From IMG/VR virus record IMGVR_UViG_2648501839_000008: a stretch of DNA of 64,000 nt, one strand, 5' to 3'. Source of the DNA: a virus. Lineage: Duplodnaviria > Heunggongvirae > Uroviricota > Caudoviricetes. The position numbers were made by a program, and so were the translations under genes. Of the stretch, positions 1 to 13,017 are shown piece by piece (the stretch's first letter is position 1; every line of letters starts with the position of its first letter). The notes below the pieces were generated by a model. The model was not told where the DNA came from, did no database searches, and saw nothing but the letters and a program-made list of their open reading frames with translations.

Positions 1-982
1 CGTAGTCGACAACAACCATGTCAGGCACCATGCCGTTGGCTTTCATGCTGTTAAGCATACGGTCCAGATCTGCCGGTGACATACTTCCTGACGGACGCTC
101 AACCACCCACAAACTACCAATCCCCTTCGTGGCTCCCAACTCTGCCAACTTACGATGAACCTCATCGCGCCGTTCCACCAGCTTGGACATTTCCGTCTCC
201 GACAATCTTGCATCAAAACGGTCGGATAAAATGGTGGTGTGAACCTCCAGCGAGAGATACAGAACATTGTAGCCAGCAAGCGTTGCGTTTATGGAAAACT
301 CACCCATTGCGGTCGATTTACCGGATTTAGCGAACCCCATGAAGAGCACCATTTCTCGCTTCGCCCAGCCTTTTTGGTACAGCAACCTATCGAGCAGAGG
401 GAGTCCAGTTGTAATGCTGTTTGGCACATACTCCTCTGAAGCCTCATATTCACGCGCTTTCAATCGCTCACTTGCGGAGGTGTAGTAGTCATAGATTCCG
501 GTCGCTTCGTTCGATCCAATCTGCTGAACCTTGGCCATGATTGCCATCGCCCCCTGAAAGTCGCCTTTCTCTTTCAGTTCAGCAGCCTTAATCAGAGCAT
601 CATCAAACGCTACGCTTTTTGCGAAGGTTGATACTTGGTCAACCATGTACGAGGTATCGGACAATTTTTCTGCAAGGATGCGCTTAAACGCAGCAACAAC
701 ATCGGCGAATAGTTCCTCACGGATAGTCTTATCGCGTTTCGCACGCTTAAGCATATCCAGAATCGCAGATGAAGAGGGCGCGCTCTTGTACATACGGTAA
801 TAGCCCGAAACCATATTAACCAATATGGCATTGGCCGCATTGGCAAATTGGCTAGGCACAACCAGATCTCCCGCACGAGTAAGAAACTCGTGATCACGAC
901 AAAAATATGCCGTCAGTCTGTTCTGGAAATCTTCATCAAACTCTTCGGACAGCCCGCGTCCTGTATGGCAAAGTTCGGTCAT
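1..982 (-). CDS. DnaB-like replicative helicase, N-terminal part (3' end runs off the window)
   Basis: Minus-strand frame open from ATG at 980-982 to position 1; translation MTELCHTGRG... contains a Walker A-like MGFAKSGKST about 225 aa in; RBS AAAGGAAAG upstream. Confidence 0.5.
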   Translation of the reverse strand, partial: MTELCHTGRGLSEEFDEDFQNRLTAYFCRDHEFLTRAGDLVVPSQFANAANAILVNMVSGYYRMYKSAPSSSAILDMLKRAKRDKTIREELFADVVAAFKRILAEKLSDTSYMVDQVSTFAKSVAFDDALIKAAELKEKGDFQGAMAIMAKVQQIGSNEATGIYDYYTSASERLKAREYEASEEYVPNSITTGLPLLDRLLYQKGWAKREMVLFMGFAKSGKSTAMGEFSINATLAGYNVLYLSLEVHTTILSDRFDARLSETEMSKLVERRDEVHRKLAELGATKGIGSLWVVERPSGSMSPADLDRMLNSMKANGMVPDMVVVDY

Positions 983-1002
983 GTGCTTTCCTTTGTTTTT
1001 TT

Positions 1003-1034
1003 AAACAAATTGTTTTCTAGTATTAGTTAATTAG
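1003..1034 (-). promoter_or_regulatory. Class-A palindromic site (AAACAAnTTGTTTTCT) upstream of the helicase gene
   Basis: aaacaaattgttttct followed by gttaattag, about 20 nt upstream of the ATG at 982. Confidence 0.5.
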
Positions 1035-1776
1035 ATAGGGGATCAATAAACCGCCGTGCTTCTTCCAGTTCTTCTGGAAAGTGGGCGGAAATAAGGCGCT
1101 CTGGAACGATTTCCATTAGCCAGATAGCGGAGAAAATTGCGCGTATGCGCTTGCTGCGGGGGATGGCGCGTAAACGCTCCAGAATCCACTCAAAATAGCT
1201 TTCCTGAATCGGGTTGAACTGCATGTCTCCCATATGCTTAAAGCTAACCAGAGAGTCATCCAGACGGGTTGTTGCGCGTCTGGCTAATTTCTCTTCAAAT
1301 ATCTCAATCAGTTCTGGCTGCCACAAATGCTGTGGGCGAGGCAGCTTGTCCCACAAACGTCGTGCAGCTGCGGAAAGCACGGTGGAGATAAAGTAGTCGT
1401 ATGAGCAACAATAGCGGTCAGCAAACTGGCGTGCTTTCCATAGCGACGTTTTATTGGCAGTCGACAACTCCTGATAAGGCAGGCGTTTTAACCCGGTGGT
1501 GAACGGAGCTGTTTCAAAGTGTTCGCGACCGTGCGTCAGCATGATATTTGAGTACTGACGTTTGTATGCCTCCGTAAACAGACAGGTGGCCATAAGAGGA
1601 TGCATGTCGCGGTAATCAAACCACTTCGTATCGAAGAGTTCAGCCTCGTCTTTGCAGCGCGACAAACCAATGTTTTCAGCAACCCACTTATCCATAACAG
1701 CGGTATTCCACTCTGTCATGAAGTCGTACTGGTCGTTGTCGATGGTGTCGAAAAAGATTTGGCTCATGTGGCTCAC
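1027..1776 (-). CDS. Hypothetical protein (249 aa), upstream of the helicase
   Basis: ORF track; track start is GTG, probable ATG at 1765-1767; no recognisable motif. Confidence 0.4.
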   Translation of the reverse strand: MSHMSQIFFDTIDNDQYDFMTEWNTAVMDKWVAENIGLSRCKDEAELFDTKWFDYRDMHPLMATCLFTEAYKRQYSNIMLTHGREHFETAPFTTGLKRLPYQELSTANKTSLWKARQFADRYCCSYDYFISTVLSAAARRLWDKLPRPQHLWQPELIEIFEEKLARRATTRLDDSLVSFKHMGDMQFNPIQESYFEWILERLRAIPRSKRIRAIFSAIWLMEIVPERLISAHFPEELEEARRFIDPLSN

Positions 1777-1779
1777 CTG

Positions 1780-1800
1780 GTAGGTAGTTACTTACTTATC
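1780..1800 (-). promoter_or_regulatory. Class-B palindromic site (TAAGTAAGTA..TACTTACTTA family)
   Basis: gtaggtagttacttacttatc immediately upstream of the gene starting at 1776. Confidence 0.45.
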
Positions 1801-1884
1801 ACAATGAGCTGATGATAGCGATTGGTGGCAGTTTTTGGAAGTGGAAACGGAAGGGAGTTGTTCTGGTGGGTATCTTTTGAAAGA

Positions 1885-1939
1885 CCTGCTTCCGTATATT
1901 TAATAAGTTACTTATTATTTATATATATACAGAAACAGG
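1885..1939. repeat. 55-bp AT-rich palindrome, copy 1 (near-identical to 35506-35560)
   Basis: cctgcttccgtatatttaataagttacttattatttatatatatacagaaacagg; outer arms CCTGCTTC/GAAGCAGG-like, directly 3' of the KAP NTPase gene. Confidence 0.7.
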
Positions 1940-1949
1940 TCATGAATAC

Positions 1950-3644
1950 TTAATTATTAAGCAATCTGCTCACACGTAGTTTGTTAAGACTTGATCTAGA
2001 GGCCAGTTTCGTTAATGCACCTATTGCTTTATTCGTGATTTTTTGCTGTTCTTCTGTTAGTTCTTGCATACTTTTGAATCTGAGCAACCCCTTTCTCACT
2101 AAATCCAAAGCATCCTGATTGCGGGATAGTATCCACTTTAAATAATCATCTTCAGAGAAACTGTTAAGATATGCTATGTCACTATGATTAAATTTGCCTT
2201 CAATTATTTTGTATAAAACATTCTCTAAATTAGTCTCTTCAGGCTTCTTATCCATCAATTTTTTTTGAATTAGCAGACCTAACTTTTCGTTACCAAATAT
2301 CTCTACATACAAATTCCGAAAAGCAGTATAAGCATCATCTTGGCTAACAAAGGCATCTGCATATGCCTCTATATAACTATCACAATCAATCTCCAATCTA
2401 TTTAAGATATCAATCAAGCCTATGAAGTGAGCAACAGGTATGTGTGAAAGATTGTCGTTAATTACACATTTTATCTTAGAAATAAACTCAGATTCATTGT
2501 CCTTGAATGAGTCACTAAAAATATCCCAAACATTGTTAACATCACATAAAGCCTTGTGTTCTTTATATTGTTTATTTTTTTCTTCTATTATACCTCGAAT
2601 ATTGCTTTCAGTAGAAAGATAACCATTCTTGAGATAAAAATCTATGTCATCATCGAAAGCAATTTCCGCTCGTTCATAAATAACATCAAGACTATTAATA
2701 AATGAATATACAGAATCATCCTTTTTATCATCTAACATGTAATCAAATACATGTATGTTTTTAATTGATTCTTTAAACAAGGCATAATCAACACCTGGAA
2801 CACCAGAATAGTAAACCACTGAAAACAGAACCAATCTATTGATAAAACTTTCTCTAACCTTATCCTCTGCCAAGCTTAGCTCATTCCTAAGATTAACCAG
2901 AGATGTTTTTATTTTATTTAATATACGGATATTTTTAATGCCTAAGTCATTTGCTAAGACTTTTAACAAAAGAAAATCAGAATCAGTTTCATAAAAAACT
3001 TTACGTAAGTTCTTCTCAGGCGTAGGATCGTATTTTATTTCGACATCAATTACTTTTTCTCTGTACTCTAAAAACTGTTTTTTTGCAGTTTCATCATGTA
3101 AATTATCTTCATTTAAAATTAGAACAACTTTGCAACCTTTTCTTCTTGCTAATTCATCAATTACCCCCATAATTTCTTTAACTTCTAGCGAATTACCTTT
3201 TCTTTCAACATCATCAATACAAACCAAATAATTATTAACAAATTTATACTCAAGAGATGACAGCAGGTTATCTGTTTTGAACCCAAAAAAATCGTTCTTT
3301 CCGAAATGTATTAAAAATTTTGACAAGGAGTTGTATTTCAACCATCCCCAAAACCCATTTCTATAACGAATCATAGTTCGATCCGTTTCAGATAAAATTA
3401 GTTCTTTATATTTCTTTTCATTAATTGGTGTGGCACAATGATAAAGAGCTTTTTTAATATCACCAATAGAGTTAACCCCAAACAAAGAAACATACGAATA
3501 TGCATTAAAATCTAATCCTTCAGAATGCTTAGTATAAAAACTATTCCAATAATGAGTTTTACCAACGCCCCAATCTCCTTTTATGACGGCAACCCGATGA
3601 TCTGAAACTAGAAAATTTTTTAGAAATGATTCTATCGATTCCAT
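1950..3644 (-). CDS. KAP-family P-loop NTPase (candidate defence or abortive-infection protein), AT-rich cargo gene
   Basis: N-terminal Walker A VIKGDWGVGKTH, Walker B-like LVCIDDVERKG about 140 aa later, long helical C-terminal region; AT-rich codon usage unlike neighbours; probable ATG at 3644 with AAAGGA RBS (track start 3653 is TTG). Confidence 0.55.
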   Translation of the reverse strand: MESIESFLKNFLVSDHRVAVIKGDWGVGKTHYWNSFYTKHSEGLDFNAYSYVSLFGVNSIGDIKKALYHCATPINEKKYKELILSETDRTMIRYRNGFWGWLKYNSLSKFLIHFGKNDFFGFKTDNLLSSLEYKFVNNYLVCIDDVERKGNSLEVKEIMGVIDELARRKGCKVVLILNEDNLHDETAKKQFLEYREKVIDVEIKYDPTPEKNLRKVFYETDSDFLLLKVLANDLGIKNIRILNKIKTSLVNLRNELSLAEDKVRESFINRLVLFSVVYYSGVPGVDYALFKESIKNIHVFDYMLDDKKDDSVYSFINSLDVIYERAEIAFDDDIDFYLKNGYLSTESNIRGIIEEKNKQYKEHKALCDVNNVWDIFSDSFKDNESEFISKIKCVINDNLSHIPVAHFIGLIDILNRLEIDCDSYIEAYADAFVSQDDAYTAFRNLYVEIFGNEKLGLLIQKKLMDKKPEETNLENVLYKIIEGKFNHSDIAYLNSFSEDDYLKWILSRNQDALDLVRKGLLRFKSMQELTEEQQKITNKAIGALTKLASRSSLNKLRVSRLLNN

Positions 3645-3695
3645 TAGTATCAATCCTTTAATTCATATATTGGGCGTAACAAACGCCCAATATAA

Positions 3696-4055
3696 TCAAC
3701 CTTTCTTCATCAACTCTCGTTTAATTTCATCGGTACGCATCGTAACGTCGGCAGCTGTGATCGCCTCGTTAAGCTTCACGATGTCCTCGATTTCCTGCGG
3801 TGACTTCTCTGCCAGATGGAAAATGGCTGCTCGAATCACGTCAGAACGAGTGAACTTCTCGAAGCGAGGGATGAACTTCATCATCTCCAGCAGTTCGAAG
3901 TATTCGTCTTCCAGTGACATTGTGCGGCTTTTAATTTTCTCTTTGCCACGAGTCGGGCGTCCCTGTGGTCTGACTGGTTGGCGCAAAGGAGTTGTGTTCT
4001 TAGCCGGTGCATCAGGCTCTTTGCGCTTTGCTAGGTCACCCATTTTCATGGACAT
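3696..4055 (-). CDS. ParG-like ribbon-helix-helix partition protein
   Basis: 119 aa, basic disordered N-terminus plus C-terminal RHH-like segment; start overlaps parA stop (TAATG coupling). Confidence 0.45.
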   Translation of the reverse strand: MSMKMGDLAKRKEPDAPAKNTTPLRQPVRPQGRPTRGKEKIKSRTMSLEDEYFELLEMMKFIPRFEKFTRSDVIRAAIFHLAEKSPQEIEDIVKLNEAITAADVTMRTDEIKRELMKKG

Positions 4056-4723
4056 TATTCTTCTTCCTCCAGACTCAACAGATAATCTACAAATTCTTCA
4101 AACTCGGCTTCAGCCTTTTTGTCGCGCTCGCTACCGGTCATTTCGAAGATAGAACGACCAGACTCTTCCGCATCATCGTAGACGTTGCGGTTATATAGAT
4201 TGACTGGCGCAGACTCGATGCCAAACGTCTCGACAATCTCTTTAGCCGCCAGAATGCGAGACACTTGTGATGGCAAAGCCGGGCACTGGTTCATGACCGC
4301 GCGGACCTTCACTTTATCGTTTACATTACGAACATTGTCGATAATAGGATCGATGTCACGCAGAGATTTCAAATCACGACGCTTAGGACGAAGCGGGATA
4401 ATGATAACGTCGGCCATCAGCATCGCTTGTCGCTGAATTTCGGAGTCAAAGCCACCAGCATCTACCACTACAAACTCAGCTCTACCCTGAAGCGATTTTA
4501 GGTGCTTAATGATGTCATCCTGGACGTATGCAAAAGGAATCAGCTCAAGGTCTTCGTTCTGTCGACGGTCTTCACACCAGCTCGTTGTCGTGCGCTGAAT
4601 ATCTATATCGGTAATATAAACCTTCTTCTTCTTTTTGACTTTCAGGCAAACGGCAATTTGCTGGGCAACGGTGGATTTGCCAGGCCCGCCCTTTGTGCCG
4701 CCAACCACAAAGATCTTGGTCAT
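4055..4723 (-). CDS. parA: ParA/MinD-family partition ATPase
   Basis: Deviant Walker A GGTKGGPGKST at the N-terminus; 222 aa, small type-Ib ParA size; RBS AAGGGA. Confidence 0.7.
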   Translation of the reverse strand: MTKIFVVGGTKGGPGKSTVAQQIAVCLKVKKKKKVYITDIDIQRTTTSWCEDRRQNEDLELIPFAYVQDDIIKHLKSLQGRAEFVVVDAGGFDSEIQRQAMLMADVIIIPLRPKRRDLKSLRDIDPIIDNVRNVNDKVKVRAVMNQCPALPSQVSRILAAKEIVETFGIESAPVNLYNRNVYDDAEESGRSIFEMTGSERDKKAEAEFEEFVDYLLSLEEEE

Positions 4724-4899: not shown

Positions 4900-5652
4900 T
4901 TAATCTTTTAGATATAAACCAACTGGGGTTCTTGTTTTGCGGGAGATGATAAGTACGATAAATTTCTCAACGTTAACTTGCACCTTATTTGGAAACCAAG
5001 AGCTTAATTCTGGATCAAGTAACAATCCTCTGTTCCACGGCAAAAAGCCGGTTTCTTTTCCCATCCCATATTCGCCTAACACATCCTCGAACGTCTCAGT
5101 TTTTGCGTTGTAAATTCTTACATCACCTGTTCGCATTAATGGACCGGCCCAGATTTTTGCGCCAGGAATGGTCTGATTGTAATCACAGACAAGATGTTCG
5201 TACCAATGAAGGAGGAAGCGATACGTGAGGTTGCACAGTCCCCTTTGCCTTATTGCTCTTTCTGTCTCAACACCTGCAATCTGATAGCAGTCAATCTCTA
5301 CCCCATCCTCGATGAATGTGTATTCACGCAATGCAATTCTGCCTGCTATCGTGTTTCTGCTCTGATCGAGCATGTCGGAACGCAGAATTGCTTGAATAAT
5401 GTCCGAATCAGACATTCCATCTTCGCCTCTGTCCAGAATGAAGTCCATCAGTTCACCCTGATCTCGTGCTCCAACTTTCTCCATCAGGATATACAGACAG
5501 ATATCATCATCAGGCTCGATAATGGTTATTTCGGATATTTTGAAAAGCGATGCTTCGTTGATGAGGTAGCCAAAACGTGAAACGCGAGTTTCCCCACGGT
5601 GAGGAAACTCATAAAGATTTTTAGAGTATGTGCGTTCTAGTGTAGGTGCCAT
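4900..5652 (-). CDS. Hypothetical protein (250 aa)
   Basis: ORF track; ATG at 5650-5652; overlaps the upstream gene by 16 nt (coupled pair). Confidence 0.4.
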   Translation of the reverse strand: MAPTLERTYSKNLYEFPHRGETRVSRFGYLINEASLFKISEITIIEPDDDICLYILMEKVGARDQGELMDFILDRGEDGMSDSDIIQAILRSDMLDQSRNTIAGRIALREYTFIEDGVEIDCYQIAGVETERAIRQRGLCNLTYRFLLHWYEHLVCDYNQTIPGAKIWAGPLMRTGDVRIYNAKTETFEDVLGEYGMGKETGFLPWNRGLLLDPELSSWFPNKVQVNVEKFIVLIISRKTRTPVGLYLKD

Positions 5653-6020
5653 CTTAGAGCAGTACCATCAGCAGTTGTATTGCTGACAATGCTACCATGA
5701 GTATTAAGAAAGCGGCGAATTGCACTCTCAATAATTTCAGAGAATTGGTCACTAAACCGTGCTAATTCAGGGTATTGTTTTGCTGGCTTCACAATGAAAC
5801 GAACACGATCGTTCAGGAAAATCGCTTCAGCCAACGGTTTTACACTGGCACCAGCATTCTCAACATCGTCTTTGAAAGTTACGATGAAGCGAGTGTCTTT
5901 TGGCGCAGTCGCATCGTTGTTAAGTTTACGCACCTCAAGTTTGCGCTTATTCAGCACATGAGTTGCGATAACACTCGTGCAATCGCGAATTGTTTGTATA
6001 GAACGTTTTTCGTTCAGCAT
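5637..6020 (-). CDS. Hypothetical protein (127 aa)
   Basis: ORF track; ATG at 6018-6020. Confidence 0.4.
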   Translation of the reverse strand: MLNEKRSIQTIRDCTSVIATHVLNKRKLEVRKLNNDATAPKDTRFIVTFKDDVENAGASVKPLAEAIFLNDRVRFIVKPAKQYPELARFSDQFSEIIESAIRRFLNTHGSIVSNTTADGTALRWHLH

Positions 6021-6197
6021 GTGTCCACCTTAGCCGGTATTAACTTAATGTCATAGCGGCGACCCTTGTCAGGGTTTAGAGGCTACGAGTATGCGTCGCA
6101 GCATTAATGCAAGGGATGATTTACTTGACATCCATGTGCCAAATCTACCTTGTGCTCTAATAATATGCAAATTTTATGTTAGAAAACTCCTCTTCTG

Positions 6198-6428
6198 TTA
6201 TGGTACTTTTCTGCCCCATCCACACAATCGCTCCCCTATCATATTGTGAAAAAGTACCTCTCTTTCAGTCTCTTCGGTCATGAGATCATCACGGCTGATG
6301 TATAGCGGTGTAGCCGCATCGCAGAAAAGCACACCAGCGGGTTGAGGCTTAATCACGCAACCACTTATTGTGCAACTCATGATGAACAGTAGAAGCATCC
6401 TTGCTCCGTAACTCATCAAGTGTTTCAT
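6198..6428 (-). CDS. o-spanin (Rz1-like outer-membrane lipoprotein), overlapped with the i-spanin gene
   Basis: Alternative frame across the Rz-like gene; signal peptide with lipobox ...FIMSCTISGC; start placed at internal Met (track ORF is 6198-6506). Confidence 0.4.
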   Translation of the reverse strand: MKHLMSYGARMLLLFIMSCTISGCVIKPQPAGVLFCDAATPLYISRDDLMTEETEREVLFHNMIGERLCGWGRKVP

Positions 6429-6600
6429 TTTTGACGTCCAATGTGCTTTGAAGTCGTTTCCTGTCTTCCTGTTTTGCCTTCTCTTCCATTGCTCGTCGCG
6501 CCGCATTTCCGCCCATCGTGTAAGCGCCGACCAGAACGAAAAGAACGGCAGCCAGCGTAATCAAAGCAACTTTTAGCTTTGTCATCAGGCTGCCTAGCAT
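6349..6600 (-). CDS. i-spanin (Rz-like)
   Basis: N-terminal TM segment (LKVALITLAAVLFVLVGAY) followed by a charged coiled-coil region; contains the Rz1-like ORF in another frame. Confidence 0.5.
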   Translation of the reverse strand: MLGSLMTKLKVALITLAAVLFVLVGAYTMGGNAARRAMEEKAKQEDRKRLQSTLDVKNETLDELRSKDASTVHHELHNKWLRD

Positions 6601-6601
6601 A

Positions 6602-7321
6602 TTAGACCATCCCTTTCTGGTGTCTTCTTACCTGCGACCAGGCAATGAATCCGGCCACAACAATAGTGGCAATGCCGAAGATGATGCGTACTGTATCCCC
6701 GCTAGAGATATGACCTTGTGCCTTATCCATAGCAGCGGAAACCTGCGGCATAACATCGGCCAGCTGCGCCAGACCAATACCTGCTGTAACAGTTGCGCCT
6801 GCAGTTTCTTTAGTTACAGGAACAGCCTTCACGGTTTTCACCGGCTTAACGACGCCAGCTCGACGCAGACCTTCCTCAATAACTTCTGCCGCATACCAGG
6901 TGTTCAGCGTTTTTAGCGGACCTCGCCCATTCTCATGGCGAATGATTGCCTCAACCAAAGGTCGAAGAATGTCGTAATCATGCAGATCGATGATCATGTC
7001 TGCGGTTACACCAACGGCTTTAGACACCTCATTAATGTAGGCGTCAGTGTTGTTTTCATTCGGCGGTGCCCAACGTTCAATAACTTCACGAATGGTATCG
7101 ATACTTGAGCCGTCTTTTGCGCGACGTTTGTCGTGGTAGGTAATTAGAGTCACCGCCAGCGCACGAATCCCCCAAACAGGGTCTTTAAACGTGCAAAAGC
7201 GCGGTTCGTCTGGATTCGCAATCAGACCTTGCCACGGTGATCCTTTATCAAGATTACCGGGGTTATTATTACGAATGCCTCTCGGAGTCTTCATCCTTGA
7301 TCTCCTGTTATTGCAGTCCAT
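6602..7321 (-). CDS. Putative lysis protein / peptidoglycan hydrolase candidate with C-terminal membrane anchor
   Basis: Lies between the holin-like and spanin genes; conserved-looking RNNNPGNL motif; C-terminal hydrophobic segment IIFGIATIVVAGFIAW; family not recognised. Confidence 0.35.
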   Translation of the reverse strand: MDCNNRRSRMKTPRGIRNNNPGNLDKGSPWQGLIANPDEPRFCTFKDPVWGIRALAVTLITYHDKRRAKDGSSIDTIREVIERWAPPNENNTDAYINEVSKAVGVTADMIIDLHDYDILRPLVEAIIRHENGRGPLKTLNTWYAAEVIEEGLRRAGVVKPVKTVKAVPVTKETAGATVTAGIGLAQLADVMPQVSAAMDKAQGHISSGDTVRIIFGIATIVVAGFIAWSQVRRHQKGMV

Positions 7322-7693: not shown

Positions 7694-7714
7694 GTAGGTG
7701 TGTACTTACTTATC
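7694..7714 (-). promoter_or_regulatory. Class-B palindromic site
   Basis: gtaggtgtgtacttacttatc about 50 nt upstream of the gene starting at 7643. Confidence 0.45.
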
Positions 7715-7943
7715 ATTCAACATTGCAACGGACTGATGAGAAAGCACCTACTCCAACCCATCGCCAGTTATAGATGCTACCCGCTTTGTATAAGGTATAG
7801 TCGTTCACTTTTTTAACAGCATATATGGGTATGACTGTCTCCTGTCCACCAATGATAGCCTCACCATAACATATGGGTGTCGGCAATTTCTGACAGCCAG
7901 TAAGAGAGAGAACAACAGCTATTGTTAGAAATAATCTTTTCAT
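7713..7943 (-). CDS. Small lipoprotein (Cor-like superinfection-exclusion candidate)
   Basis: Signal peptide plus lipobox LSLTGC, 76 aa, located just after the tail fiber genes. Confidence 0.4.
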   Translation of the reverse strand: MKRLFLTIAVVLSLTGCQKLPTPICYGEAIIGGQETVIPIYAVKKVNDYTLYKAGSIYNWRWVGVGAFSSVRCNVE

Positions 7944-7953
7944 CGTTTACTCA

Positions 7954-8562
7954 TCAGTTATACAGATTTCTATTTATTACCGGTACTCTGCCATTTACGC
8001 TAAAACTATGGCCGCCATTAAGTTGGTTTACGAATATGGAACTAACAGTATTTCCATATGCCGCATATCCATAAACCATTGTCATGGCCCCGCCCGGTAC
8101 TGGAACCGCGAACACATTTGCATATGTTGGGATTATCGCTGGCGGGTAATCAAAAACATGCCCTCCAGAACTGTTCCACTCCGTATTATTAAGAAAGGTA
8201 AATGAAAGTGGGATATTTGCCGTATTATAGATCTCCTCTCCTCGCGCATTGAAAAAACTCATGCCCCAAGTTTCTTTTTTGGCTATACCTTTCGAAAATA
8301 CGTATATCGTGGCACTAGAGTCGCTACCCTGACCTCCGAAACTGTAAATCACCTGGTTGTTACGCACTATTCTGTTGGCTATTAATGAAACAGCTTTCGA
8401 ATAGGCAACAAAAATCATCGGTGAACGATCTGGAGATATTTGGGTGTTAAACTCTGTCCCGCCAGACAAAGAAACAACCTGCTTTCTCTGAAAAACGATA
8501 GGAGACAAAGAAGGAGACATCCAGACCTTCCCGTCAGATCGATATATCTTGCTTCCGTACAT
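7954..8562 (-). CDS. Hypothetical protein (202 aa), tail-fiber associated
   Basis: ORF track; start overlaps the upstream stop (TAATG). Confidence 0.35.
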   Translation of the reverse strand: MYGSKIYRSDGKVWMSPSLSPIVFQRKQVVSLSGGTEFNTQISPDRSPMIFVAYSKAVSLIANRIVRNNQVIYSFGGQGSDSSATIYVFSKGIAKKETWGMSFFNARGEEIYNTANIPLSFTFLNNTEWNSSGGHVFDYPPAIIPTYANVFAVPVPGGAMTMVYGYAAYGNTVSSIFVNQLNGGHSFSVNGRVPVINRNLYN

Positions 8563-8816
8563 TATTTTTGAAAAACCAATATGTTTAAATTGCCACTAGC
8601 TCCAGACCATGAAATGGTATTTCCAGAAACCGTAAGACTTGTGTATTTCCCATTGGTTACGTCCATTATGTAATAGTCGATTCCCAATCCCGCCTCAACC
8701 TCATATGTTCTACTTCCAGAACCAGAGGGAGTAAAATAATCGAGGTAATAAACAGGGGCCAACGCATCGACCATCTCCTGTCTTGATGGCGACCATACCT
8801 GTGCACCATAGCTCAT
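8562..8816 (-). CDS. Hypothetical protein (84 aa)
   Basis: ORF track; coupled to the downstream gene. Confidence 0.35.
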   Translation of the reverse strand: MSYGAQVWSPSRQEMVDALAPVYYLDYFTPSGSGSRTYEVEAGLGIDYYIMDVTNGKYTSLTVSGNTISWSGASGNLNILVFQK

Positions 8817-8876: not shown

Positions 8877-10499
8877 TTATTCTTTAGGTGAATTTAACTT
8901 CGTTTCAAGCTCCTCAACCCTTTTGGTCAATTGCTGAATATGATGAATGAGTGGTACAACCAAACGCTCATACATCACTCCTTCAGCGACCATACCATTT
9001 GAGGAAATATCTTCTGGAGAATCATTATTTGTTGGTTCACGCCAATGGACATATTGCGGGGCAATCTCACCAACCTCTTCAGCAATAAGGCCGTAATACC
9101 CCCAATCCTTTCGGTCACCTCGACAAATTGAACGATACCAAACAGGTCTTAATGACAAAAGTTCATCAGCATATCGATCTTGTAATGTTTCAATATCCTT
9201 TTTATAGCGCCTTGAAGATGTTGAACGCCAAACTGTATTGATACCTGGGTTTGGATCAATGTACATATTGGCACCGCTAGTAGTTGTGCCAATATCCCAT
9301 ATAGCAAACCCTCCACTACCGCCTGATTTGACAACCAGTGTTTCAGCAATAATATCCAGGTTGCCACTATAGCCTGTCAGTGATGATCTGCTTGCATAGG
9401 AACTTAGAAGGTTTGTTACCTCTGTTTTCGTATAAGCATTAAGGTTAGCCGCAGTCAAAGTAATATCGGCAGAGCCATCAAACGCCACACCAGCAATTTT
9501 CCTTGCTGTCTGCAATTTTGTGGCTGTTGCGGCATTACCAGTAGTATTCTGATTACCGGTTGTATTCACACCAGGGATTGAATCCTTAGCAGTATATACC
9601 TGCGCCCACGCTGACCATGCCGCATCTGTGGTATCTCTTCGTGAGCGAATGAAAACTGGCGCATGTGCACCGCTCGTACCACTCCAGCCAATAAGCAACT
9701 CGCCCTCACCAGCAGCACTCGCACCTTTCATGTGCAATACGTTGCCATACGTGGTCGGGTAGCTATTGTTGTACGCCTCGTACATTTGAATGCCAGCAGT
9801 GCCTTGAGTAGAGCCGCTTAATGCCGTAACTCGGCCACGAGATACCAGTGTATTAATGTTGATATCGCCTGAGCCATCAAACTTAACACCATTGATGTTT
9901 CTCGCTGTTTGCAACTTCGTAGCTGTTGAAGCATTACCGTTCAAACTACCATTTACGCCACCAGTCACATTTAGTCCATTACCAATTGATACCGCACCGC
10001 TGGTATTATTAATTGTAATAGGTCGCAAACCGTTCCATGAACCTAATGTGTCTCCTGATGCTGTTAGCATGAAATATGTGTTCGATCCATCATTACGGAT
10101 AAAGAACCCAAAGCTACCGTAAGCAATGCGGAAACCATTTGCATATTTTGAAATGATCTCGCCAGAAGATGTCAAACCTCCAGATAATGTACCACCGGTA
10201 AGAGGTAATGCACCGACATCAGAGGCTGTTGGTTTGTTTTTCGTGTTATATACTCTTCGCCATCCCGGAGAATAATCTGTGCCATTAAATACATAGATAA
10301 ACTCCGCATTAGTGAGAGCACCAGAGACACTCGTCGTTGTGGCCGTTGTTATACGGATCGTATAATTGTTTGAGCTACTACCGTTATTAAATACCTCTAT
10401 AACAGCTCCTGCCAATGGAATAACGCCACAACCAGTTTCACTATTTGGTATGGTTGCACTATTGGCATAGGCCCACGCACTTTGTGTTAAATGCTCCAT
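8877..10499 (-). CDS. Tail fiber/spike protein with C-terminal intramolecular-chaperone (peptidase S74-like) domain
   Basis: GNASTATKLQTAR tail-fiber repeat motifs; C-terminal ...RRYKKDIETL...GLIAEEV... resembling self-cleaving chaperone domains. Confidence 0.6.
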   Translation of the reverse strand: MEHLTQSAWAYANSATIPNSETGCGVIPLAGAVIEVFNNGSSSNNYTIRITTATTTSVSGALTNAEFIYVFNGTDYSPGWRRVYNTKNKPTASDVGALPLTGGTLSGGLTSSGEIISKYANGFRIAYGSFGFFIRNDGSNTYFMLTASGDTLGSWNGLRPITINNTSGAVSIGNGLNVTGGVNGSLNGNASTATKLQTARNINGVKFDGSGDININTLVSRGRVTALSGSTQGTAGIQMYEAYNNSYPTTYGNVLHMKGASAAGEGELLIGWSGTSGAHAPVFIRSRRDTTDAAWSAWAQVYTAKDSIPGVNTTGNQNTTGNAATATKLQTARKIAGVAFDGSADITLTAANLNAYTKTEVTNLLSSYASRSSLTGYSGNLDIIAETLVVKSGGSGGFAIWDIGTTTSGANMYIDPNPGINTVWRSTSSRRYKKDIETLQDRYADELLSLRPVWYRSICRGDRKDWGYYGLIAEEVGEIAPQYVHWREPTNNDSPEDISSNGMVAEGVMYERLVVPLIHHIQQLTKRVEELETKLNSPKE

Positions 10500-13017
10500 T
10501 ATTTTGCAATAACGTCACTAACTGTGCTGTTGTTATTGCTCCGCCATTACTTCCTGTAGTTAACCAACCAGTAGGAGATGCCGGGCAACCTATATTTGCT
10601 GGCGACAAGGAAATATTTGCCGAGCCGTCAAACGACACCCCATTGATAGTACGCGCAGTCTGCAACTTCGTTGCAGTAGCCGCGTTGCCCGTTGTATTCT
10701 GATTACCAGTCGTATTAACACCTGGCAAATTAATATTCGCAGTACCATCAAAGCTCACGCCGCCGATAGTTCTTGCCGTCTGAAGTTTTGTAGCAGTTGC
10801 AGCATTACCAGTGGTGTTCTGATTACCCGTAGTATTTACACCTGGAAGGTTGATATTTGCAGAACCGTCGAAACCAACTCCACCGATAGATCTTGCCGTC
10901 TGCAATTTCGTTGCTGTACTTGCATTACCATTTAATGTTCCGGTGATCCCACCAGTAACAGACAACGGACCTGAAACTGTTCCTCCGGTTGTTGGCAGTG
11001 CTCCAATATCTAACGGCGTCGGTTTCTGATGTGTGCTATACATCGTATAAACAACACCATCGGTAACGCTGGAAGGCTTACTCGCTGAATATGTTGGCGA
11101 TGTATAAATAGAAACTGTCGCATTTGCAGTACAATCCCAATGGATATTTACACTAGTCGCATAATTGCCAATCTCAACGTAAATATCATATGTATCGCCG
11201 GATGTGTTGATCCAGGCGAAATTCGTTAATCCGACGGCTGTACGCTTCCACAAAGCACCGGTAATCCCTTTGGGGTTTCCATTGCCTGCTCGTAGAACCA
11301 GTTCTGAAATGCCTGCCTGATGTGGGGAGCCGACGTTGTAACCAGCGCCACCAATCAATGCGATGTAAACGATGGAACTCGCTTGTGGCATGGTAACCGT
11401 AGCCAGTTTGAACCACCCAGCCCCGCCAGAGAAAGACATCGTTACTGAATTTAAAGTACCAATATCTTTCGGCGTTAATGTGATATCCGCAGTCAGTGCT
11501 TTACCGTTAACTTTTCGGTTAGATGGCACCCTGCTATTCGCATTGTCATTGGCTGCTTTAACTGCTTTTGGCGTTGCGGCCAGCGATTCACTGGTGCTGT
11601 CGACAGCACTGCTAAGTTTCACAACACCTTTGGTGGTAAGGCTTGCGTCTTCCATCGCAACGGCACCGGCAATCTCTTCAGCACGATCAGCGGCAGCTTC
11701 TGCACGGGTCGCAGCGGATTCAGCAGCAGCTTTGCTCTGAGATGCAGCCGTCGCACTGCCTGCCGCCTCTGTTGCTTTCGTGGATGCCGTTGAAGCACTC
11801 CCCTTCGCAGCTGATGCCTGCTTGGTCGCCTCATCTTTTGAAGCGGATGCCGAGGTGGCTGATGCAGACGCAGAACTTGCAGATTCAGCAGCTGCCTCTT
11901 TAGAGGAAGCGGCATTATCTTCAGAAGCCTTTGCATTTGTTTCAGAGGATTTTGCTGCCGATGCTGAATTTTTAGCGGCTGTAGCCTGATTCGTCGCCTC
12001 AGTCGCTTTTGCGGTAGCTGTTGTCGCTGACGACGACGCGCTTTCCGCAGATTTTCCTGCCGCAGTTGCACTTGATGAAGCACTATCCGCACTTGCTGAG
12101 GCTGCGCTTGCTGACGCTTCTGCCGCAGATTTCGAACTGTTTGCAGACGATGCACTCTGCCCGGCTGCCGTTTCAGATGCTTTTGCGTTTGTCTCTGACG
12201 CTTTTGCTGCCTTAGACGAATTTTCAGCTTCTGTTGCAAATGATGCAGCCGCGTTTGCACTCGATGAAGCGTTAGTCTCTGATGCTTTGGCTGCATCCTT
12301 AGATGCAGAGGCACTGGACGCAGATGTTGCTGCCTCCGATGCTTTGGTCGACGCTACAGACGCTGATTCTGCTGCCGCTAGATATGCTGATTCTGCGTTC
12401 GTTTCAGATTTTTTCGCAGCAGTTGCACTCGCACTTGCGGCACTTTGTGAGGATGCCGCAGCGGATGCACTTTGAGACGCTTGAGAGGCTTTTTCTCCAG
12501 CGGTATTGGCGCTTTCTGCTGCTGCGGCAGCACTGGCCGCCGCCTCACGAGCTTTGTCACCAGCGGCATCAATCGCGTCAGTGTTATTTTTATACCACTC
12601 AACGTTTTCGTTGTGCTCGTTGACGATCTGCATCAGCGGCTTAACGGTCACTTCTGTACCGTCTTCACGCTCGATTGTCACCTCATCCAGAGCAGTCAAC
12701 CAACTACGCATGGACTTGGAATCAGCCGACATACGCGACATTAGCGCGGTAAAGCGCGCGCTAAACTGTGTTAAGTCGCCTTCATAGGTAGTAATGATTC
12801 GGCACGGAACTTCAGACTGAGTTTCACCGGTATAAGGTTCTGAGAGAACAATGTTCGTATCGCTTGTTACGCGCTTGATCTCATACAGCTTATTGTCGGG
12901 GCCAATGACGATCATCCCCGGCAACACACCATTAGCTGTTACGTTCCAGGCTGTCCCAACCCCAACCAGAGTATTACTACCCTGTGTAAATGTGATAGTA
13001 CCTTCCCTGTACCACAT
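10459..13017 (-). CDS. Side tail fiber protein (852 aa)
   Basis: Conserved tail-fiber N-terminal region, long Ala/Ser-rich repetitive shaft, repeated GNASTATKLQTAR...FDGSANI motifs. Confidence 0.7.
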   Translation of the reverse strand: MWYREGTITFTQGSNTLVGVGTAWNVTANGVLPGMIVIGPDNKLYEIKRVTSDTNIVLSEPYTGETQSEVPCRIITTYEGDLTQFSARFTALMSRMSADSKSMRSWLTALDEVTIEREDGTEVTVKPLMQIVNEHNENVEWYKNNTDAIDAAGDKAREAAASAAAAAESANTAGEKASQASQSASAAASSQSAASASATAAKKSETNAESAYLAAAESASVASTKASEAATSASSASASKDAAKASETNASSSANAAASFATEAENSSKAAKASETNAKASETAAGQSASSANSSKSAAEASASAASASADSASSSATAAGKSAESASSSATTATAKATEATNQATAAKNSASAAKSSETNAKASEDNAASSKEAAAESASSASASATSASASKDEATKQASAAKGSASTASTKATEAAGSATAASQSKAAAESAATRAEAAADRAEEIAGAVAMEDASLTTKGVVKLSSAVDSTSESLAATPKAVKAANDNANSRVPSNRKVNGKALTADITLTPKDIGTLNSVTMSFSGGAGWFKLATVTMPQASSIVYIALIGGAGYNVGSPHQAGISELVLRAGNGNPKGITGALWKRTAVGLTNFAWINTSGDTYDIYVEIGNYATSVNIHWDCTANATVSIYTSPTYSASKPSSVTDGVVYTMYSTHQKPTPLDIGALPTTGGTVSGPLSVTGGITGTLNGNASTATKLQTARSIGGVGFDGSANINLPGVNTTGNQNTTGNAATATKLQTARTIGGVSFDGTANINLPGVNTTGNQNTTGNAATATKLQTARTINGVSFDGSANISLSPANIGCPASPTGWLTTGSNGGAITTAQLVTLLQNNGAFNTKCVGLCQ

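Follow-up and report, generated by a model that had tools for sequence, protein, structure and literature searches.

A 17-nt deletion splits a predicted side tail fibre gene of an SSU5-like Escherichia coli phage-plasmid into two open reading frames

We set out to determine whether two long, overlapping open reading frames (ORFs) next to the central tail fibre gene of a phage encode two further fibres or one. The window, the whole 64,000-nt stretch of DNA that was analyzed (IMG/VR record IMGVR_UViG_2648501839_000008), carries on its minus strand an 852-aa and a 540-aa ORF that overlap by 41 nt in the window's ORF list. Both lie at exactly the coordinates given by the first-pass annotation, which had read them as two tail fibres, one of them with a self-cleaving chaperone domain. 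The gene order in the window is J, fibre, an 84-aa ORF, a 202-aa ORF, cor, holin and endolysin, and relatives show the same order. The fibre locus is flanked by the J-type central fibre (1,576 aa) and a Cor exclusion lipoprotein, and its position downstream of J and upstream of the lysis genes is kept in the window and in relatives. Judged from its sequence, the locus is one side (lateral) tail fibre gene of an SSU5-like Escherichia coli phage-plasmid (Table 1).

A single family profile covers both ORFs. Across the 1,385 positions of phrog_3299, the 852-aa ORF matches 1-847 and the 540-aa ORF 849-1385, and a full-length match is reached only with the two combined. The single uninterrupted frame expected of phrog_3299 members is absent in the window, which holds a disrupted allele and not a working member of the family. 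The best plasmid matches align with the 4,141-nt query over its full length and extend for 4,158 nt, equivalent to 1,385 codons plus a stop, at 99.4% identity. These include E. coli pRM13322 (99.4% DNA identity to the window across the whole gene); E. albertii pEA26_1 (WP_252152879.1) is 97.4% identical over the same length, and both loci translate to uninterrupted 1,385-aa proteins. The intact alleles share synteny with the window (J, fibre, 84-aa ORF, 202-aa ORF, holin, endolysin) but differ from it by the 17 nt that the window lacks, hence its two ORFs. Given the collinearity with phrog_3299, the uninterrupted 1,385-aa ORF in relatives and a 17-nt frameshifting deletion, the locus is one gene, and the two supposed fibres are consecutive fragments of it. 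Many proteins of 695 and 689 aa from the same 90% cluster, annotated as "chaperone of endosialidase", were considered as signs of a natural two-gene layout and rejected as gene-calling truncations; at both loci concerned, L008 and L010, the 1,385-aa ORF is likewise intact.

Table 1. Features of the side tail fibre locus, in window coordinates.
Feature	Position	Strand	Remark
Whole side tail fibre gene, pseudogene allele	8877..13017	-	phrog_3299 collinear with both ORFs
5' fragment ORF, 852 aa	10459..13017	-	846 authentic residues, then out-of-frame CVGLCQ and stop
3' fragment ORF, 540 aa	8877..10499	-	7 out-of-frame residues (MEHLTQS), then 533 authentic
N-terminal domain (aa 1-145), presumed tail attachment	12583..13017	-	putative attachment role
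Ala/Ser-rich heptad-repeat shaft (aa 146-455), predicted coiled coil	11653..12582	-
Segment homologous to Mu fibre protein S residues 105-156 (aa 451-502)	11512..11667	-	5yvq_A, E 1.7e-8
Three tandem 40-aa (120-nt) repeats	10613..10929	-	motifs 10891-10929, 10771-10809, 10651-10689
Domain homologous to Mu S/S' residues 186-334	10185..10650	-	contains the deletion
Deletion junction	10479..10482, between 10481 and 10480	-	...ACACAAA/GTGCG...; alignment and base check
Gp34_trimer (PF21446), residues 61-163 of 540-aa ORF	10011..10319	-	Pfam E 1.8e-29
Fourth fibre repeat copy	9862..9938	-	motif 9900-9938
Fifth fibre repeat copy	9463..9539	-	motif 9501-9539
Predicted scissile bond Thr427-Ser428 of 540-aa ORF	Ser428 codon 9216-9218, Lys433 codon 9201-9203	-
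Peptidase_S74 intramolecular chaperone, 113 aa (intact residues 1273-1385)	8880..9218	-

The missing 17 nt, GTCATGGATTGCTCGAT, occupy columns 2538-2554 of the alignment. They form the sole gap in the full alignment and account for the entire length difference from the intact relatives, with a flanking GT microhomology of 2 nt that leaves the exact endpoint ambiguous by 2 nt. The deletion takes out residues SWIARC and shifts the frame within the domain homologous to Mu S/S'. Since 8ju3_A aligns without interruption across this site in the intact pEA26_1 protein (E 2.3e-31), the break interrupts a folded domain. Apart from the deletion, only eight substitutions, seven synonymous and one non-synonymous, distinguish the window gene from pRM13322, the nearest intact copy, which argues that the deletion is recent. 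In the 3' part, one non-synonymous and two synonymous changes separate the two copies, and there is no decay.

That both long ORFs bear fibre-type repeats, and that public annotations call both as genes (the 540-aa product is identical to WP_248842562.1), would suit two separate functional fibre genes, the shorter with its own chaperone domain. We find this scarcely credible, as the ORFs are collinear halves of the phrog_3299 profile, every closely related intact copy consists of a single ORF, and the boundary cuts through a domain that Mu S/S' carries uninterrupted. The ends of the ORFs also speak against it. Whereas an AAGGAG Shine-Dalgarno sequence precedes the ATG of the 852-aa ORF, none was found 5' of the ATG of the 540-aa ORF, which opens with seven out-of-frame residues before its authentic part (residues 853-1385 of the intact protein); the 852-aa ORF, for its part, closes with six junk residues. 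A multi-gene fibre with its own start signals and a conserved two-gene layout was rejected on the missing Shine-Dalgarno sequence and the single-ORF relatives.

Fibre genes are prone to misassembly through their internal repeats, and one public record, CP012114.1, spans 4,157 nt at this locus and may contain a 1-nt error; the split could accordingly be an assembly or sequencing artefact hiding an intact gene. We consider this very unlikely, because the deleted sequence is unique, non-homopolymeric and outside the repeats, and because the identical junction recurs in assemblies that were made independently, from different samples and by different pipelines: two IMG genomes, GCA_001265545.1 and the Logan assembly of SRR19671076. 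A 34-mer across the junction is present in two IMG/VR contigs, and the exact 540-aa product is encoded by 12 public contigs that come from separate samples, GCA_001265545.1 and SRR19671076 among them; in the two carrier contigs compared in full, the gene is identical to that of the window (0 nt differences). A search for the junction region at 99% identity or more in 188 records from complete E. coli genomes gave no match, and the complete-genome matches listed (n = 40) all span 378 nt for the 361-nt query. Nor was the 34-mer matched in a set of one genome per GTDB species. By these sequence comparisons the deletion is a real allele, rare and recent, and not an assembly error.

Reading the gene from its 5' end, the N-terminal domain is the sole part still similar in DNA to Salmonella phage SSU5 (78%, gene nt 1-515). 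The long Ala/Ser-rich repetitive shaft that the first-pass annotation had described follows at 11653-12582, with 39% Ala, 24% Ser and strong heptad periodicity (lag-7 identity autocorrelation of 0.419 against a maximum of 0.308 in 200 shuffles). No tandem repeat was found at the DNA level in this stretch, so the pattern is that of a degenerate heptad coiled coil rather than repetition of the DNA. The shaft is overlain by many antisense and alternate-frame ORFs, and the earlier view of them as spurious is upheld, since the sense ORF matches the fibre family over its whole length. The same stretch has also misled gene callers in other genomes.

The motif GNA[AS]TATKLQTAR occurs five times, three times in the 852-aa ORF and twice in the 540-aa ORF, in keeping with the claim that both carry repeats. 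Each copy sits in a 77-nt DNA repeat; these repeats share 70-78% identity, and three are arranged in tandem as a 120-nt array. A scan with fibre-repeat profiles, proposed as a check on these repeats, came back empty: no fibre-repeat family in the Pfam copy used gave a match even at E values up to 10.

Beyond the shaft, the Gp34_trimer region also matches T4 gp34 (4uxe, 5nxf) and Mu S (5yvq) among PDB entries. Similarity to other phages ends at or near the repeat motif. Escherichia phage Cyrano CYRAN_21 matches the fibre collinearly across aa 1-1244 (84.6% identity), then carries a different, Mu-S'-like tip, and it lacks both the S74 domain and the two downstream ORFs. The suggestion that the receptor-binding ends are modular is borne out, and sequence comparison confirms a mosaic, modular build for the predicted fibre.

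The distal end of the 540-aa ORF had been proposed, from a short motif, to be an S74-like intramolecular chaperone. Peptidase_S74 (PF13884) matches ORF residues 428-484 over model positions 1-57 of 58 at 28.9 bits (E 1.4e-6), above the curated Pfam cut-off of 22 bits; the intact relative scores 27.2 bits. A direct phmmer search of the last 240 aa against the PDB returned chance matches only, and a profile of 40 homologues was needed. That profile finds the T5-like L-shaped fibre 8hqz_d (E 4.4e-10), the MyRF intramolecular chaperone (ICA) domain 7dc3 and S16 gp37 6f45. An AF2 model of 180 residues has a block-mean pLDDT of at least 90 at residues 71 to 170, with a helix at 150-176. Foldseek searches with this model returned 7dc3 at E 4e-5 and probability 1.00, followed by 3gud and 3gw6 at 0.91-0.99, and no other match above 0.08. 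The predicted fold matches solved ICA domains, including their long C-terminal helix. Profile matches, motif conservation and the structural model together confirm a C-terminal Peptidase_S74 chaperone in the predicted protein.

We also inspected the predicted cleavage site. In the sequence RST/SSRRYK we verified Thr427, Ser428 and Lys433, a Thr-Ser pair with a lysine five residues on, as in T5 pb1, and S428, K433 and GLIAEE are invariant among the 40 homologues. We infer from these residues that the chaperone would be released by autoproteolysis at the Thr-Ser bond via the Ser/Lys pair.

At a probability of roughly 90%, we favor the reading that one side tail fibre gene has been split by the 17-nt deletion, most likely leaving no functional side fibre. 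From N to C terminus, the intact 1,385-aa protein would comprise a tail-attachment domain, a coiled-coil shaft of about 310 residues in Ala/Ser heptads, a Mu-S-like segment, three tandem 40-residue repeats, a Mu-S'-like domain, a T4 gp34-type trimerisation domain, two more fibre repeats, a short distal tip and the 113-residue Peptidase_S74 chaperone. The chaperone would aid trimer folding and then cleave itself off at Thr1272-Ser1273 with the Ser/Lys pair. By shifting the frame in the Mu-S'-like domain, the deletion would limit the product of the true start to 846 authentic and 6 junk residues, and would strand the distal 533 residues, tip and chaperone included, in an ORF with a fortuitous ATG and no ribosome-binding site. 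No functional side fibre would result; virions, if any, would rely on the central fibre J alone, and the element would otherwise persist as a plasmid.

The split gene might instead still give a working fibre, either by a +1 ribosomal frameshift in the overlap or by non-covalent assembly of the fragments, as in T4 gp34-37. The 41-nt overlap would permit the former, as the frames would be rejoined by a +1 shift at any of the final 18 sense codons of the 852-aa ORF, and the 3' ORF retains its own trimerisation and chaperone domains and is free of decay. Yet inspection of the overlap revealed no recognisable +1 slippery site or stimulator, and even a rejoined protein would be without SWIARC, whose Trp is conserved in Mu S'. 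No ribosome-binding site precedes the 3' ORF, the break falls mid-domain and not at a domain boundary, and the arrangement is a rare derived allele and not a conserved design. We judge a working fibre by either route highly improbable; a programmed +1 frameshift in particular was rejected on the lack of a known slippery motif and on the derived, rare state of the allele. Against loss of function, the intact 3' part fits a very recent event and continued use equally well. The N-terminal 846 residues, coiled coil included, might also trimerise without the chaperone and form a stub.

The allele is not strongly counter-selected in the plasmid state, since it has spread to at least 12 contigs. Independent IS2 and IS66 insertions are found in the same fibre gene in other plasmids, and the deletion adds to these hints of frequent disruption of the gene in SSU5-like phage-plasmids. 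The presence of the identical allele on 12 contigs from several samples, like the independent IS2 and IS66 insertions, would fit repeated selection for loss of the fibre in such elements. We think it unlikely, though conceivable, that the fibre-less allele is kept as advantageous and is not a neutral recent accident. If it were, side fibre loss could favor the plasmid lifestyle or, like the lambda PaPa mutation, alter adsorption dynamics; the 540-aa C-terminal piece might also be produced on its own and serve as a soluble receptor-binding or exclusion factor.

The fibre gene itself is an ordinary one, already catalogued, and its intact allele clearly illustrates a mosaic fibre bearing an S74 chaperone, a type that has been well described before. 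For annotation, the locus is best recorded as one disrupted tail fibre gene and not as two fibres, with RefSeq WP_248842562.1 as a fragment whose first seven residues are spurious. The locus would also be a further natural case of a phage that, like laboratory lambda, has a J-type central fibre and has lost its side fibre through a frameshift.

Among known fibres, Mu S/S' (5yvq, 8ju3) and T4 gp34 (4uxe, 5nxf) have homology to three internal segments of the intact protein (aa 451-502, 790-950 and 907-1033). Unlike in those fibres, the Mu-S'-type domain of the window gene lies within the protein and not at its end. Mu S/S' and T4 gp34 fibres depend on separate assembly chaperones and are not known to use an S74 domain. 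The ICA domains of K1F endosialidase, the GA-1 appendage and MyRF (3gw6, 3gud, 7dc3) share the predicted fold and the PF13884 family, but at only 11-22% sequence identity and with different upstream passenger domains. The T5 L-shaped fibre (1,396 aa) is likewise long, with a C-terminal intramolecular chaperone and a Thr-Ser pair followed by a Lys five residues downstream; in T5 pb1 cleavage occurs between Thr1263 and Ser1264, with Lys1269, and releases a C-terminal chaperone of about 130 residues (PMC4690869). Unlike in T5, however, the tip before the chaperone is much shorter in the window fibre and unrelated in sequence, and the remainder consists of Mu S- and T4 gp34-type modules.

The stf lesion of laboratory lambda, a single-base change, originated in laboratory stocks, whereas that in the window is a 17-nt deletion in natural plasmid isolates. 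In other respects lambda PaPa resembles the window element, being a siphovirus with a J-type central fibre and a frameshifted side fibre gene annotated as two consecutive ORFs. Its stf frameshift (Hendrix and Duda 1992) abolishes the side fibres and leaves plaque number unchanged (PMC12617516). By analogy with this precedent and with a J-type central fibre present, the fibre is probably accessory here too, and loss of the functional side fibre, as in laboratory lambda, is the most likely outcome of the deletion.

An ORF scan recovered exactly the minus-strand pair of open reading frames, overlapping by 41 nt, that the first-pass annotation had read as two tail fibers. This reading proved wrong, as the two ORFs are collinear halves of a single gene. 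In PHROG family 3299, which has 1,385 positions, the 852-aa ORF corresponds to positions 1-847 and the 540-aa ORF to 849-1385. Plasmid records matching the fiber gene numbered 501, chiefly Escherichia plasmids and mostly non-mobilizable, the best of them roughly 110 kb in size. These best matches covered the whole 4,141-nt query while spanning 4,158 nt, the exact length of 1,385 codons and a stop, and both E. coli pRM13322 and E. albertii pEA26_1 translate to unbroken 1,385-aa proteins. Among the phages that match the region are Escherichia phage Cyrano and Salmonella phage SSU5; the region is part of an SSU5-like phage-plasmid.

Features of the split side tail fiber gene and its neighbors, with the extent of similarity to other phages
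Feature	Coordinates	Strand	Basis or remark
852-aa ORF	10459..13017	-	ORF scan
540-aa ORF	8877..10499	-	ORF scan
Ala/Ser-rich shaft, aa 146-455	window 11653-12582	-	39% Ala, 24% Ser
Gp34_trimer (PF21446)	540-aa ORF residues 61-163	-	Pfam E 1.8e-29; PDB matches T4 gp34, Mu S
Mu-S-like segment	aa 451-502	-	PDB match
Central tail fiber J, 1,576 aa	13111..17841	-	phrog_31; upstream of fiber gene
84-aa ORF	8562..8816	-	phrog_557; first downstream of fiber gene
202-aa ORF	7954..8562	-	phrog_425; after 84-aa ORF
Cor-type lipoprotein, 76 aa, lipobox LTGC	7713..7943	-	phrog_1119 (Cor superinfection-exclusion family), E 3.6e-30
SSU5 similarity	gene nt 1-515		ends with N-terminal anchor region
phi458 similarity	gene nt 795-2261		ends just past repeat 2
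HdSG1 similarity	gene nt 2209-2368		covers repeats 2 and 3
CMS-2020a similarity	gene nt up to 3114		ends at repeat 4

The sole gap in both the local and the whole-gene alignments is a 17-nt stretch, GTCATGGATTGCTCGAT, which occupies gene positions 2538-2554 and is missing from the window. The junction falls between window positions 10481 and 10480 (...ACACAAA/GTGCG... on the minus strand; bases checked), and the deletion is flanked by a 2-nt GT microhomology. The composition of both ORFs follows directly from this lesion: the 852-aa ORF comprises 846 authentic residues, CVGLCQ and a stop, while the 540-aa ORF opens with MEHLTQS, a wrong-frame reading of upstream sequence, and continues with authentic residues 853-1385, leaving residues 847-852 (SWIARC) lost. 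The phage Mu S/S' fiber (8ju3_A) aligns without a break across the site in the intact pEA26_1 protein (E 2.3e-31), with the Trp of the deleted residues conserved, and the deletion therefore does not sit at a domain boundary.

We considered an assembly error and rejected it, because the lost 17 nt are unique sequence and their loss is seen in independent runs. A 34-mer across the junction was found in two IMG/VR contigs: one identical to the window (100%) over 6.2 kb and probably its own source, and a second, belonging to another IMG genome, that mismatches it once in 12 kb. The 540-aa product has an exact counterpart in NCBI, WP_248842562.1, annotated as "tail fiber domain-containing protein" and carried by 12 contigs, including GCA_001265545.1 and the Logan assembly of SRR19671076; in both of the two contigs compared, the whole gene matches the window with 0 differences. 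Intact copies of the gene are much more frequent, with one of their C-terminal products indexed in 166 blocks of the collection. Among complete E. coli genome records, none matched the junction region at ≥99%, and all 40 matches listed for the 361-nt junction query span 378 nt. The 4,141-nt span was absent from the full-length matches listed in PLSDB, as was the 34-mer from a set of one genome per GTDB species. Deletion aside, 8 substitutions separate the gene from that of pRM13322, of which 7 are synonymous, and the lesion is therefore young. The deletion is a real, rare and recent allele.

Other lesions were seen in related plasmid records. Four plasmids that share one source, human stool (H25-H28; NZ_CP025870.1 and three others), carry IS2 within the fiber gene, another plasmid (H30, CP091407.1) has an IS66-family element there, and in a further record (H15, CP012114.1) the gene measures 4,157 nt, 1 nt less than the intact length. 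The same gene appears to have been disrupted independently in these cases.

The proposal that the fiber ends in an S74 chaperone held up, with Pfam, motif, profile search and predicted fold in agreement. Peptidase_S74 scored 28.9 bits (cut-off 22). The domain start reads ...RST/SSRRYK..., placing a Thr before Ser428 and five residues from Ser428 to Lys433, the same arrangement as the Thr1263-Ser1264/Lys1269 of T5 pb1 (PMC4690869). Ser428, Lys433 and GLIAEE are invariant across 40 aligned homologs, and a profile built from that alignment matched the T5-like L-shaped fiber 8hqz_d (E 4.4e-10), the MyRF ICA 7dc3 and S16 gp37 6f45. An AlphaFold2 model had a mean pLDDT of 78, with block means of at least 90 over residues 71 to 170 of 180, and its only credible Foldseek matches were the MyRF ICA and the chaperones of the GA-1 appendage (3gud) and K1F endosialidase (3gw6). 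The predicted released piece is 113 aa. The same short tip and chaperone also occur, at 55-57% identity and behind a short coiled coil, in homologous proteins of ~231 aa (P0021-P0036) from ~50-kb contigs and coliphages orkinos, BEBK14, PeterMerian and Jahat_MG145. The tip and chaperone module is thus also present in coliphages that are not phage-plasmids.

The Ala/Ser-rich repetitive shaft was likewise borne out. Its heptads are clear, with a lag-7 identity of 0.419 (maximum 0.308 in 200 shuffles) and further peaks at 14, 21, 28, 35 and 42, and its composition and periodicity fit a coiled coil; Tandem Repeats Finder reported no repeat in the shaft DNA. The numerous ORFs in antisense and alternate frames across it are, as supposed, spurious artefacts of composition. 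Many public genomes carry the intact 1,385-aa fiber ORF but annotate only a product of 695 or 689 aa, "chaperone of endosialidase", whose start lies at the first fiber repeat; in some, antisense ORFs are called within the shaft too. One related locus, L008, has its fiber annotated as 695 aa only, though the 1,385-aa ORF is intact, and an antisense 227-aa gene called in the shaft (3473-4156 (-)); the region listed for the under-annotated ORF in L008-L011 is 5001-7088. Such short annotations and antisense calls are systematic errors of gene calling, brought about by the compositional bias of the shaft.

Repeats shared by both ORFs were also found, as five copies of GNA[AS]TATKLQTAR within 77-nt repeats of 70-78% identity; three of the five form a 120-nt tandem array. 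The scan for phage fiber repeats suggested in the first-pass annotation was negative, Pfam fiber-repeat models giving no match even at E up to 10. The first-pass view that the fiber ends are modular stands, because similarity to other phages is patchy, with several ends at or beside the repeat motif, and because the tip of the Cyrano fiber differs. That fiber is collinear with the intact one over aa 1-1244 (84.6% identity) but lacks the S74 domain, and Cyrano also lacks the 84-aa and 202-aa downstream ORFs. The last ~110 aa of CYRAN_21 (SNGAFSKRYWIGFG...IIEVFNLPNGDYTIRLTTS) resemble the internal Mu-S'-like domain broken by the deletion, and thus one domain type is internal in one fiber and terminal in another.

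Downstream of the fiber gene lie, in order, the 84-aa ORF, the 202-aa ORF, the Cor-type lipoprotein, a holin-sized ORF and the endolysin. The first two have no Pfam match; in related plasmids they are always found downstream of an S74-ended fiber, possibly moving together with the tip module. The lipoprotein is left unannotated in several related plasmid records. Its analogy to the Cor proteins of other phages hints that the central fiber J uses an FhuA-type receptor. The C-terminal region of J contains several hundred residues of Ala/Glu-rich degenerate repeats (...DISAAI..EQEARxxADxAL...) and also matches fiber families. Elsewhere, window 2001..4000 has a G+C of 0.335 against about 0.47 in the remainder and overlaps a 567-aa ORF (1950..3653 (-)); it may represent a cargo gene gained recently.

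The intact protein would be a trimeric side fiber with an N-terminal anchor, extended by coiled coil and beta-structured modules; the S74 chaperone would assist folding of the distal tip and then remove itself. In the deletion allele, translation halts short of the distal half. The true fiber start is preceded by AAGGAG, whereas the 540-aa ORF has no Shine-Dalgarno sequence, and inspection of the 41-nt overlap found no plausible +1 frameshift signal; for these reasons, we infer that the side fiber is lost. The adjoining J-type central fiber and Cor exclusion gene, together with the dispensability of the side fibers of lambda and T5 (PMC12617516), suggest that it is accessory. In that case the phage may still infect, adsorbing more slowly or more narrowly, and nothing would change for the plasmid state. 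Public databases already contain the fiber gene family, its domains and even the truncated product, and what was correct in the first-pass annotation describes a well-known kind of fiber. The split gene itself has a parallel in the stf frameshift of lambda PaPa.
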